DNA of 64,000 bases from an uncultured Aliarcobacter sp. (lineage in GTDB: Bacteria > Campylobacterota > Campylobacteria > Campylobacterales > Arcobacteraceae): NCBI GenBank assembly GCA_963664305.2, contig CAXXLV010000002.1, positions 1,716,428-1,780,427 on the forward strand, read 5' to 3'. Positions 18,334-26,602 of the stretch are shown here, in pieces. Position 1 is the stretch's first letter, and the number at the start of each line of letters is the position of its first letter. The position numbers were made by a program, and so were the translations under genes. The notes beneath the pieces were generated by a model. That model was not told where the DNA came from. It ran no database searches and saw only the letters and a list, made by a program, of their open reading frames with translations.

Positions 18334-18394
18334 AATATTCCTTCTTGTTTTTCGAATATTATAACAGTATATTTTTTATAATTAGAGTTTAAAT

Positions 18395-18411
18395 TGTTTA
18401 AATTTTATACA
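18395..18411. promoter_or_regulatory. 17-bp palindromic regulator site upstream of second amt
   Basis: TGTTTAAATTTTATACA, 31 nt from extended -10 TGTTATAAT (hexamer 18363-18358, minus strand). Confidence 0.7.
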
Positions 18412-18412
18412 A

Positions 18413-18443
18413 TATAGTAAGGAAAGGTTATTTCCTTACTATA
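18413..18443 (-). terminator. Hairpin terminator after glnK
   Basis: TATAGTAAGGAAA-GGTTA-TTTCCTTACTATA, 13-bp perfect stem. Confidence 0.7.
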
Positions 18444-18453
18444 AGTAGAAAAA

Positions 18454-18792
18454 CTAAACTGCTTCACTTCCTCTTTCTTCAGTTCTAATTCTTACTACTT
18501 CATCTAAAGATGATACGAAGATTTTACCATCTCCAATTTTTCCAGTTTTAGCTGAATTAACAACTGCGTTGATAACAGTTTCTACCATCTCATCTTTTAC
18601 CACAACATCAATTTTGATTTTTGGTAAAAAATCAACTACATACTCAGCACCTCTATAAAGTTCGCTGTGTCCTTGTTGTCTTCCGTAACCTTTTACATCA
18701 TAAACACTCATACCTGTAATTCCAGCTTCAACTAAAGCATCCTTTACATCTTCTAATTTAAAAGGTTTAATTATAATTTCAATTTTTTTCAT
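18454..18792 (-). CDS. glnK: P-II nitrogen regulatory protein co-transcribed with amtB (GlnK-like)
   Basis: Same P-II motifs ([15 protein letters not shown]); 13 nt downstream of amtB. Confidence 0.9.
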
Positions 18793-18805
18793 TATTTATC
18801 CTTAA

Positions 18806-23111: not shown

Positions 23112-23121
23112 TTCTCATTTT

Positions 23122-23152
23122 TAGCAATGGCTTTTGAATAAAACCATTGCTA
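23122..23152 (+). terminator. Hairpin terminator
   Basis: TAGCAATGG..TTTT-GAAT-AAAACCATTGCTA followed by CTTTT. Confidence 0.6.
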
Positions 23153-23203
23153 CTTTTAGCTTTATTAAATCTTTAAAATTACAATTTCATTAATTATTAC
23201 AAT

Positions 23204-23220
23204 TGTTTATTTTTTATACA
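23204..23220. promoter_or_regulatory. 17-bp palindromic regulator site upstream of regulator-glnD operon
   Basis: TGTTTATTTTTTATACA, 30 nt before TATAAT at 23251-23256; an extra TTTTATACA half-site ends at 23249. Confidence 0.65.
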
Positions 23221-23312
23221 TTTTTTTAGTTTTTTTTCATTTTTATACAGTATAATATTTTAATAACGGATTTTCTATTCAAAATTTTCAGATTCAGTAG
23301 AGGTAATATAGT

Positions 23313-24065
23313 ATGCAAGAATATATCGCAAAAGATAGTATTTCCAAAGAAATTTTAAACTCAGCAAAACTTTTACAAGCAGTAGAAGTAAATGCTTTAA
23401 TTCTTGGAGAAAATGGTGTTGGGAAAAAATCTTTAGCTAAATATATTTTACCCCAGTCTGAAATTTATGATGCAAAAAGTCTTCAAAAAGATATCATGGA
23501 TGATGTATTAACTTTACAAAATGAAGCTATTATTATTGATAAAATAAATGAAATCACAAATATAGACTTATTTTTAAAATGGATAGAAGAAAATTCAATA
23601 AGAATTATTGCTATTTCACCTACTGAAAATCTAAATCAAAAATTAAAAGATATTTTCTCTATTAATTTAGAAATTCCAATTTTAAGTAAAAGAGAAGAAG
23701 ATACAAAAGCTTTAGTAAATAAATTTTCTCAAGAAGCTAGTTCTATTTTAGATATGCCATTAATTCCACAATCAAAATTAATTATAAATATCTCAAATAA
23801 CTCTCATAGTTTAAGAAAATCTATCTATTTTTCATATTTATTTGAAACAATTGGGGAACATGAAATTTTAATGTTTTTAGAAAAATATATAAGTGAAAAT
23901 TTATATGGAGAAAATTCATATAAAGATTTATCTTATATTTTTGAAGTTCCTTTATTAAAAGCTGCAACAAAAAAATATAAATCTCAAGTTCAAGTAGCAA
24001 AACATTTAGGTTTAAATAGAATTACATTAAGAAAAAAATTGGAAATTTATAAAGATTTATTATGA
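23313..24065 (+). CDS. Degenerate NtrC-like AAA+/Fis-HTH transcriptional regulator (no receiver domain, no GAFTGA)
   Basis: LILGENGVGKK (bEBP Walker A), IIIDKI (degenerate Walker B), LEIPILSKREED (PPLRER-like), SQVQVAKHLGLNRITLRKKL Fis HTH. Confidence 0.85.
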   Translation: MQEYIAKDSISKEILNSAKLLQAVEVNALILGENGVGKKSLAKYILPQSEIYDAKSLQKDIMDDVLTLQNEAIIIDKINEITNIDLFLKWIEENSIRIIAISPTENLNQKLKDIFSINLEIPILSKREEDTKALVNKFSQEASSILDMPLIPQSKLIINISNNSHSLRKSIYFSYLFETIGEHEILMFLEKYISENLYGENSYKDLSYIFEVPLLKAATKKYKSQVQVAKHLGLNRITLRKKLEIYKDLL

Positions 24066-26602
24066 CAGAACTTAATATACAAATTGAAGAGTTAATTTCA
24101 AATAATGCAACAGACTTTCAAATCTCAAAAGTTTTTAAAACTTATTATAAAAATTATTTAGAATCTATTGATACAACTGTTGAAACAACTGGCGGAAAAG
24201 ATTTTTTCATCAAACACACAAAACACACTGACAAATTTTTAATCCTTTTATACAAATATATCTTAAGAAAAAACTTTGGTTCTCATCAACCAATGAGTAC
24301 ATCAATTCCTATTAGTTTAGTTGCTCTTGGATCTTACGGTAGAGAGCAATTATGTATCTATTCAGATATTGATATTATGATTTTATATGAGGATATTAAA
24401 GGTTATAATCTAAAAGATATTATGGAAGAGTTTATTACTCTTGCATGGGATTGTGGACTAAAACTTGGTTCTCGTGTTCATGAATTAAAAGAAATTACAG
24501 AAGTTGTAAAAGAAGATATAACTATAAAAAGTTCTATTTTAGAATCAAGAATGATTTATGGTTCAAAAATTTTATGGTTTAGATATGAAAATGTTTTAAA
24601 AATCGTAAGAAAAACTGGACAAAAAGAGTTTATACTAGAAAAACTTGAAGAACATAAACAAAGATTACTAAAATATCCACTAAAAATGGAACCAAATATT
24701 AAAGAAGGTTATGGTGGACTTAGAGAAACAAATCTAATGTATTGGATGGCAAATGTCTTATATGGTGTTACAAATACTAAAGATTTAATTGGGACTCAAT
24801 TTACGGAAGAAGAGTATAGAAAATATAGACAAGCTTTAGAATTTATTTTTCAAGTAAGAAATGCTTTACATAATATTGCTAGAAAAAAATTAGACCAAGT
24901 AACTTTTGATATTTTACCTGATTTAAGTTCTAAACTAGGATTTAAAAATAGTTCAAGATATACAAAAGATAGACTTTGTATGTCAAAAATCATCTCTTGT
25001 TTACACATAATTCATAACTTTACTGCAACAATGGTAAAAAAATTTACAAGAATTGCTTTTTTTGAAGCATCAAATATCTCAAAATTAAAAAAACAAAGAT
25101 ATAAAAAGAATCTTTATATTATTGATAATGAACTTTATTGTTCATTTAGTGCAAAACCTCAATCTTTAAATTATATGCTTAAAGAACTTATTGAATTACC
25201 AACAAACGTAGAAAAATTTGATAGGTCATATATTTACTATTTAAGTAAAGCTAAACTTCCAAAAGTTCAAACAAAAGAGTTGAAAAAAACTGTAAAAACA
25301 CTTTTATGTAAACCTAATTTGTATCCATTAATAAAACTTATTTACAATGCAGGACTGTTTAGAGCTGTTCTTCCTAGTACTAAAACTATGATTGATTTAC
25401 CGCAATTTGATGGATATCATAAACATCCTGTTGATATTCACTCTATAAAAACATTAAAATTTTCACAAAATATTGAAAATGAACATGTAAAATCAATCTA
25501 TAATGAATTAACAAATGAACAAAAAATTCTTGTAAGATTGGTATCTTTTTTCCATGATATTGGAAAAGGAAGAAAAGAGGATCATCATATTGTAGGAGAA
25601 AAACTATTTAAAAGTATGATGAAGTCATTTGATTTTGATGAAGAATTTATTAAAATTGGTGCAAATTTAGTTAGATATCACAATATGATGTCATACATGG
25701 CAACGCATGAAGATATTTATTCTGAAAAAACTATTTTAAACTTTACAGGGCTTATTAAAACAAAAGAGTCTTTAAATATGCTATATGTGATAACTTATTG
25801 TGATATTTCAGCTGTTGCAAAAAATATTTTCAATAGCTCTATTTCATCACTATTAAGACAGTTATATTATCAATCATTACCAGCATTTGAAGATGAAGAA
25901 TTTTTAAATGAAAGTAAAAGAAGAATTGCTAAACAAAATACAATTAAAAATCTTGAAAGATACAAAGAACTACCTACAATTTTACAAAAGAAAATTATGT
26001 ATATAGCTTCAAACCAAATCTTTTTAAGATTAAAAGCAGAAGATATTTTAGATATTGCGATTAAAGCAAAAGATGTTGATACGTATATTTATAAAATTAC
26101 AAATGAGCCTCAATTAACTATTAGAATTATTAGAAAATCTCCTCTAAATCTTGGTTATTTATTGGGTAAATTAGAGTTTTTAAATATTGCATATATGAAT
26201 ATTTTTAAATTGTATGATAATAAAAAAGCTTTTGAAATTTCTTTTTCAGAAAAAGTTGACAATGAAGATATTTATTTTATTGAAGAGATTATAAAAGACT
26301 CTTTTGATATGAATAAAACAACAAATTTATTAACTCCAATTATTAAAAAAGAGAACATAAAAATAGATTGTAACCATACAGCATATCTAGCTTCTATGCA
26401 TATTGTGGCAAAAGACCAAAAAGGTTTATTTGCTTATATTGCTAAAATTTTTGATGATTTTAATGTTGAAATAGAGAGTGCAAAACTTCACACACTTAAA
26501 GGTTATGCAAGAGATTTAATTTTGATTGAGAAAAATGGAAATTTCTGTTCAAATCAAGATGAAATTGTAAATCTTATGTGTAGAGGTGATAAAACAGAAT
26601 AA
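24062..26602 (+). CDS. glnD: [Protein-PII] uridylyltransferase / uridylyl-removing enzyme
   Basis: ALGSYGR..YSDIDI nucleotidyltransferase motif, EPNIKEGYGGLR, QFDGYH..VDIHS, HD domain FFHDIGKGR, C-terminal ACT (DQKGLFAYI); ATGA overlap with the regulator. Confidence 0.9.
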   Translation: MTELNIQIEELISNNATDFQISKVFKTYYKNYLESIDTTVETTGGKDFFIKHTKHTDKFLILLYKYILRKNFGSHQPMSTSIPISLVALGSYGREQLCIYSDIDIMILYEDIKGYNLKDIMEEFITLAWDCGLKLGSRVHELKEITEVVKEDITIKSSILESRMIYGSKILWFRYENVLKIVRKTGQKEFILEKLEEHKQRLLKYPLKMEPNIKEGYGGLRETNLMYWMANVLYGVTNTKDLIGTQFTEEEYRKYRQALEFIFQVRNALHNIARKKLDQVTFDILPDLSSKLGFKNSSRYTKDRLCMSKIISCLHIIHNFTATMVKKFTRIAFFEASNISKLKKQRYKKNLYIIDNELYCSFSAKPQSLNYMLKELIELPTNVEKFDRSYIYYLSKAKLPKVQTKELKKTVKTLLCKPNLYPLIKLIYNAGLFRAVLPSTKTMIDLPQFDGYHKHPVDIHSIKTLKFSQNIENEHVKSIYNELTNEQKILVRLVSFFHDIGKGRKEDHHIVGEKLFKSMMKSFDFDEEFIKIGANLVRYHNMMSYMATHEDIYSEKTILNFTGLIKTKESLNMLYVITYCDISAVAKNIFNSSISSLLRQLYYQSLPAFEDEEFLNESKRRIAKQNTIKNLERYKELPTILQKKIMYIASNQIFLRLKAEDILDIAIKAKDVDTYIYKITNEPQLTIRIIRKSPLNLGYLLGKLEFLNIAYMNIFKLYDNKKAFEISFSEKVDNEDIYFIEEIIKDSFDMNKTTNLLTPIIKKENIKIDCNHTAYLASMHIVAKDQKGLFAYIAKIFDDFNVEIESAKLHTLKGYARDLILIEKNGNFCSNQDEIVNLMCRGDKTE

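Follow-up and report, generated by a model that had tools for sequence, protein, structure and literature searches.

The present analysis concerns a 64,000-nucleotide window of the genome of an uncultured Aliarcobacter sp. (C2:1716428-1780427 of genome G000, which measures 2.78 Mb and has 27% G+C). It revealed a 17-bp box that marks a nitrogen-assimilation regulon and, upstream of glnD, the gene of a 250-amino-acid (aa) regulator that is a remnant of NtrC. In the reading that we favour, to which we give a probability of about 0.6, this NtrC remnant would activate sigma70 promoters from the box, and a kinase-dead remnant of NtrB, encoded beyond the window, would relay the P-II signal to it by contact. 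The initial annotation of the window had proposed a sigma70-type nitrogen regulon and had predicted that glnA, gltBD, urea and nitrate genes would belong to it; a scan of the genome found all of them.

Three 17-bp boxes are present in the window, before amtB-glnK (20087..20103), the second amt gene (18395..18411) and the regulator-glnD pair (23204..23220). As initially reported, they lie 31, 31 and 30 nt, respectively, before TATAAT -10 hexamers (20050..20055 and 18358..18363 on the minus strand, 23251..23256 on the plus strand), and 66, 61 and 92 nt before the corresponding start codons. If the hexamer is the true -10, the centre of the amtB-glnK box falls near -52. The sigma54 motif GG-N10-GC is absent from both strands of all three intergenic regions, and this also agrees with what had been noted. 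The amtB-glnK box (TG-N13-CA) is a perfect 8-1-8 palindrome, but perfect palindromy was rejected as evidence: the genome, with its 27% G+C, holds 263 perfect 8-1-8 palindromes, seven of which start with TG, and the palindrome by itself is therefore unremarkable. A motif count limited to the window (seven matches compared to 2.2 expected) was also discarded as circular, since the pattern had been derived from the same sites.

The non-circular test of the box is its spacing before a -10 hexamer. A matrix built from the three window sites only was used to scan 1286 upstream regions, 1283 of them non-seed, with a cut-off of 12 bits. At gaps of 30-32 nt, 11 of the 1283 non-seed promoters score at least 12 bits, compared to a mean of 1.7 and a maximum of five at other gaps (20 gap triplets); column-shuffled matrices gave a mean of 0.56 promoters, and one of 300 shuffles reached 11. 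Seven of these 11 promoters plainly concern nitrogen: those of narK, eutB, a urea ABC/urea carboxylase operon, an assimilatory nitrate reductase-like gene, gltB, glnA and ureD. Below 12 bits the list is mixed and includes a glnQ-like transporter, a glutamine amidotransferase, a thioesterase, ciaB, nifA, an SNF transporter, a transglutaminase cluster, a potassium antiporter and nirA. With a refined matrix, strong boxes also emerge before two quinohemoprotein amine dehydrogenase operons (C2:850017-851624 and C2:1437132-1438730), at a gap of 41 that exceeds the usual one by a helical turn, and before urtA, at a gap of 52. The content of the NtrC regulon, as listed in part of PMC5343134, agrees with these genes. 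Two of the weaker matches can be described further. The ciaB-family gene (G000:C2:184650-186533; 10.8 bits, gap 32) has a box without the closing CA, probably a chance match, and the transglutaminase cluster (G000:C1:691029-697780; gap 32) also encodes circularly permuted ATP-grasp and alpha-E proteins. The spacing of the box is other than that of the boxes which we take to be those of NifA (TGT-N10-ACA), NtcA (GTA-N8-TAC) and FNR; the box of Bacillus GlnR/TnrA presumably has the same length and another fifth base.

Concerning the sigma factor, rpoN, whose presence had been in question, is found in the genome beside a nif cluster with nifA. Sigma54-like motifs precede several genes of this cluster and none of the box targets. 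The sole true enhancer-binding protein of the genome is NifA, which alone has an intact AAA+ domain; a classical NtrC was looked for elsewhere in the genome and was not found. A PAS histidine kinase encoded after rpoN was considered as a possible NifL and set aside, as it keeps its histidine box. The cluster itself (G000:C1:729000-772000) carries nifHDK, nifA, mod genes and rpoN, and an eutBC ethanolamine operon with its own box lies inside it. Furthermore, rpoN was not found in seven of the 30 regulator-carrying genomes compared below, and all seven keep the glnA box. In Campylobacter, sigma70 promoters possess a -10 box but lack a -35 box, according to the promoter description in part of PMC3847290, and this fits with dependence on an upstream activator. 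The gaps of the box are helically phased (21-22, 31-32, 41 and 52) and put it upstream of the -35 region, the usual place of an activator.

The regulator gene was found in 59 of the 251 sampled genomes (60 matches, of which that of G197, weak and broken by stops, was counted as negative). It occurs in nearly all genomes of ten smaller families, in five of 11 genomes of the window's own family besides G000, in one of 81 genomes of family f2 and in none of 105 genomes of family f3; we infer that f2 and f3 are the Helicobacter and Campylobacter groups. The promoter of glnA was compared between 30 genomes with the regulator and 30 without, the rule being a TG-N13-CA box with a -10-like hexamer 30-32 nt further on. 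The box is present in 28 of the former and none of the latter, and the two regulator genomes that escape the rule have a box one helical turn closer, at gaps of 21 and 22; for the gap windows used as controls, the counts were 6 to 8 of 30 where the regulator is present and 0 to 1 of 30 where it is not. A held-out set of 29 further genomes of the own family (G252 was left out, its glnA being split over two contigs) gave the glnA box in all 13 genomes having both the regulator and NtrB-remnant genes, in the three where one of them was found and in one of the 13 having neither, this lone positive being an assembly in about 190 contigs. Within the window's own genus, the figures are five of five with the regulator and none of 12 without. 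At amt promoters, a box (gaps 20-22 or 30-33) was found in 30 of 33 rows with the regulator compared to one of four without; two of the rows represent one promoter, and in the three rows that failed the start had been placed within the gene. Because box and gene are present and missing together, in the held-out set as well, the 250-aa protein, already considered as the likely binder by the initial annotation, very probably binds the box. The site of NtrC at E. coli glnL is built on the same 17-bp TG-N13-CA frame. The AT-shifted TGT form of the box, put forward as its characteristic, is true of the window but is a lineage variant: phylum-wide, the third base of glnA boxes is more often A or C than T.

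The regulator (23313..24065, plus strand) aligns with residues 137-467 of E. coli NtrC with a probability of 97.9%. Its predicted fold, which begins with the AAA+ helix, has a predicted local distance difference test score (pLDDT) of 92 and matches the structures of NtrX, NtrC1 and PspF; with TIGR01818 (NtrC, NR I) it scores 29.3 bits, below the cut-off of 558.6 bits. It is derived from NtrC. A receiver domain was not found, the NtrC alignment starting at residue 137 and the relatives being about 220-271 aa long, though no search for longer fused forms was made; the long N-terminal extensions of some relatives (open reading frames of up to 313 aa) overlap the tail of the upstream gene and carry no receiver. 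The GAFTGA loop is absent from the displayed rows of the relatives' alignment. The alignments with NtrC and among relatives therefore bear out the initial description of a regulator devoid of both receiver and GAFTGA. The AAA+ fold is shortened, with 65 residues from Walker A to the strand that follows Walker B compared to 107 in NtrC. Walker A is conserved (G32 and G37 in 45 of 45 rows, K38 in 43 of 45), the Walker B acids are lost (columns 76-77 are variable, N being commonest) and no arginine occupies the arginine-finger or sensor II places. The C-terminal part has a helix-turn-helix of the Fis/NtrC type whose recognition helix aligns with that of NtrC; N235, R236, T238, L239 and K242 are invariant in the 45 rows, and at position 237 most families have N and some have I, V or A.

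Two further claims of the initial annotation held for the window and not in general. The regulator gene does overlap glnD (24062..26602, plus strand; 846 aa, with recognised nucleotidyltransferase, HD and ACT parts) by 4 nt, and the link recurs in three more of the 30 loci, but in 24 of the 30 the regulator gene belongs to a housekeeping operon, between genes read by eye as slyD and fabD; its coupling to glnD is local. Similarly, the gene of the regulator is itself preceded by a box here and in G243, G159 and G177. Positive autoregulation is likely in the window's lineage but is limited to some lineages.

The initial annotation also stated that there was no NtrB. However, several families have, behind the regulator gene, a gene of about 210-237 aa, whose orthologue in the present genome (G000:C2:375350-376030, minus strand; 226 aa) encodes what appears, from sequence and model, to be a kinase-dead NtrB remnant. 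The distribution of this gene coincides with that of the intact regulator: it was found in all 59 genomes that have one and in none of the 192 others. Profile searches of 121 family genomes retrieved both genes in 98, neither in 19 and discordant results in four, all fragmented. Two genomes of family f6 have a second copy of the remnant (G130:C6:23380-24039 and G153:C91:6105-6776). Its Atlas clusters are mostly from Campylobacterota, and some database sources label it as a nitrogen-specific signal transduction histidine kinase. The only kinase family that it matches is NR(II) (17 of 39 members, best E value 1.1e-4), and it aligns with NtrB where the PAS domain begins and, in the catalytic domain, from DPxxP to the hairpin; searches of Pfam and of the sequences of solved structures with the remnant gave nothing significant. 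In its predicted structure (pLDDT 86.6), a PAS domain is joined directly to a kinase catalytic (GHKL) fold, and the best fold match is NtrB 1r62 (Z 13.9, root-mean-square deviation 2.6, 117 residues aligned). The DHp/histidine helices are absent from this model, where PAS ends near residue 92 and the catalytic fold starts near 101-105, and no column of the remnant alignment has more than 26% His. Nor are the ATP boxes conserved: the N-box asparagine falls in a gap, and the conserved columns include no G1 or G2 glycines. The DPxxP stretch and the hairpin glycine are invariant. We take this region of NtrB to be the one that binds P-II. Judging from the alignments and models, the regulator and the remnant have lost matching halves of phosphotransfer.

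Co-folding of the regulator and the NtrB remnant gave a score of 0.75, compared to 0.00 for the best of three controls; the runs agree in 100% of contacts, and the partner pLDDT is at least 79. The mark applied is reached by 116 of 157 solved pairs and two of 215 mismatched pairs, rates that are only rough with the alignments used here. The predicted interface involves residues 10-27 and 114-120 of the regulator and helices 106-123 and 144-152 of the remnant, and it possibly leaves the DPxxP stretch and the hairpin free. The prediction supports contact between the two proteins. As for the signal, P-II and GlnD are encoded in all 30 regulator genomes.

These data suggest the following switch. 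With ample nitrogen, GlnD would strip UMP (uridine monophosphate) from P-II, unmodified P-II would bind the catalytic-fold domain of the NtrB remnant, and this complex would grip the first AAA+ helix of the activator and keep it off or inactive. Under nitrogen limitation, P-II would be uridylylated and the grip lost; a dimer of the activator would sit on the box near -52 and recruit sigma70 polymerase. The promoters of amt, glnA, gltBD, nitrate, urea and amine genes and of nifA would thus be switched on, and nifA would then drive the sigma54 nif promoters. The parts of this scheme are of unequal strength. Activation with sigma70 by the NtrC remnant is likely, control of the NtrC remnant by the NtrB remnant equally so, and P-II as the input through the NtrB remnant is the more plausible option. 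The anti-activator role of the NtrB remnant is slightly favoured: this polarity is borrowed from NifL-NifA, as treated in part of PMC6490700, and could be reversed.

Several observations weigh against this scheme. Four of the 11 top promoters are not plainly linked to nitrogen (a TAXI transporter, a Cache/CheW protein, an Opr porin and an autotransporter). The genomes are kin, and the counts therefore overstate independence; moreover, the lineages without the pair lost many genes, and another factor could have the same profile. The sequence matches of the remnant to NtrB are weak (E about 1e-4), and ZraS and HK853 come within 1 Z of its match to 1r62, a tie. Conservation is barely higher at the interface than elsewhere in the proteins (0.53 compared to 0.51 and 0.54 compared to 0.49). 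A similar complex, NifA AAA+ on NifL's GHKL and DH domains, has been solved, as described in part of PMC12998190, and the co-folding result may therefore partly reflect likeness to it. Finally, P-II and GlnD persist without the pair, in nine and 11 of 30 genomes, respectively.

Among the alternatives, the least improbable is the opposite polarity, which we consider unlikely: the NtrB remnant would be needed as a co-activator or scaffold, perhaps in touch with sigma70, and would be removed or reshaped by P-II or by a small ligand bound to its PAS domain. The remnant gene starts 3 nt after the stop codon of rpoD (C2:376034-377923), apparently with the same gene order in 23 more of the 30 loci (judged by eye), which may reflect steady expression or a link to sigma70, and the regulator and remnant genes are both in housekeeping operons in most families. 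However, the remnant gene is beside that of the regulator and not rpoD in 22 of the 59 genomes (in tandem in 18, tail to tail in four), the predicted contact is with the AAA+ part of the regulator, and NifL, the solved analogue, is an inhibitor according to part of PMC12998190. The direct reading of nitrogen status by the regulator, proposed by the initial annotation, is improbable. The regulator would sense P-II, GlnD or a metabolite, the NtrB remnant being a fellow traveller or a minor modulator; this would suit the overlap with glnD in four of 30 loci, the conserved Walker A, with which nucleotide sensing is possible, and the constant presence of P-II and GlnD in regulator genomes. But the link to glnD is absent from 26 of the 30 loci, the remnant is predicted to bind the regulator, and it tracks the regulator (59 of 59, none of 192) far more strictly than P-II or GlnD do, which makes the direct route the less likely one. 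It is just as improbable that the box is the site of another transcription factor, which disappeared from the same lineages, or that the regulator is a repressor or a Fis-like architectural factor: co-loss in small, probably host-associated genomes does hit many genes and AT-rich palindromes are common, but the box frame and the helix are both of NtrC type, the box precedes the regulator's own gene in four genomes, its helically phased position is that of an activator, and its third base varies with residue 237 of the helix (it is T in 10 of 18 half-sites for I, V or A at this position and in four of 40 for N, although this count has no tree behind it and includes four genomes entered with a non-canonical first match).

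The proposed contact switch can be compared with several known systems. It shares with the enteric NtrB-NtrC (GlnL-GlnG) the ancestry of both proteins, the 17-bp box frame, the content of the regulon and the presence of GlnD and P-II. It differs by the lack of the receiver, the phospho-histidine domain, the kinase ATP boxes, GAFTGA and Walker B, by sigma70-type promoters with the box at a fixed short distance instead of sigma54 enhancers, and by its gene order (regulator then partner, or split). The GAFTGA-less NtrC of Caulobacter and Rhodobacter capsulatus and VpsR of Vibrio are also NtrC-family proteins acting at sigma70 promoters, but they keep the receiver, whereas here both the receiver and the histidine domain of the kinase are gone. 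The part of a preprint devoted to Caulobacter NtrC (bioRxiv 10.1101/2023.06.06.543975) indicates that its motif resembles Fis and NtrC motifs, and that the Caulobacter and Rhodobacter NtrC require phosphorylation of the receiver. In NifL-NifA of Azotobacter vinelandii, as proposed here, an AAA+ activator devoid of a receiver is controlled through contact with a kinase-like protein that does no phosphotransfer, this contact being predicted in our case; GlnK acts through the kinase-like C-terminal domain of NifL, according to parts of PMC6490700 and PMC12998190. However, NifA, which carries a GAF domain, is active as a sigma54 ATPase, and NifL, of which an FAD PAS is also characteristic, has two PAS domains and DH helices and binds ADP, whereas the pair described here is half the size, NtrBC-derived and devoid of DH helices, nucleotide boxes and GAFTGA, and serves a general nitrogen regulon in which nifA is included. 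Lastly, the C-terminal domain of the regulator matches Fis (E 8e-6), but Fis lacks an AAA+ part and binds widely, whereas the box is concentrated at nitrogen promoters with a fixed spacing. The G-N13-C core that we take to be that of Fis sites also occurs in the box. Overall, the switch resembles NtrBC in its input and output and NifL-NifA in its logic, yet lacks the defining features of both.

The other features of the window complete the description of the locus. On the minus strand, amtB (18806..20020) encodes an ammonium transporter of 404 aa and is followed by a P-II gene, glnK by position (18454..18792). A 13-bp hairpin (18412..18453, minus strand; -14.7 kcal/mol) located between glnK and the second amt promoter is likely a terminator. 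On the same strand lie the genes of the second Amt-family transporter (17146..18333; 395 aa) and of a second P-II protein (16720..17058), which is 73% identical to the first; both P-II proteins keep Tyr51. A dihydroorotase-like gene (so named by eye) adjoins the second P-II gene and overlaps it by 1 nt (15692-17058), and pyrimidine synthesis may therefore be read from the second amt promoter. An ankyrin-repeat gene (20192-22129; 645 aa), divergent from amtB, shares the amtB box (gaps of 20, 52 and 57 on its side) and is missing from the corresponding place in G065, G243 and G159. A 295-aa membrane protein of no known family (22224-23111) is encoded before the regulator here and in these three genomes, and a similar gene is found in G005; it may belong to the nitrogen module.

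No description of such a system was found in the literature searched, mainly open papers without their supplements, and an earlier report is possible. In the available text of the Nautilia genome paper (PMC2628731), a term search found no mention of NtrB, NtrC or P-II, and the available part of a review on two-component systems (PMC12471899) mentions no such pair. A comparative study of proteobacterial regulons omitted the epsilonproteobacteria, which lack orthologues of its target factors, NtrC included, as stated in part of PMC5343134. This work names a candidate master regulator, its partner, its DNA site and its targets for the epsilonproteobacteria, and it places nifA under the switch in nitrogen-fixing Arcobacter-like bacteria. 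If the proposed scheme is true, both halves of a two-component system would have shed phosphotransfer while its input and output were retained, and the logic of NifL-NifA would have been reached by a second route. With odds a little better than even, we suggest that Campylobacterota turned the whole NtrB-NtrC system into a contact switch that needs neither phosphorylation nor ATP hydrolysis, the dead kinase having become an adaptor that would read P-II and the dead AAA+ protein a Fis-like sigma70 activator, which would govern nitrogen assimilation and, via nifA, nitrogen fixation in hydrothermal-vent, sediment and aquatic lineages.

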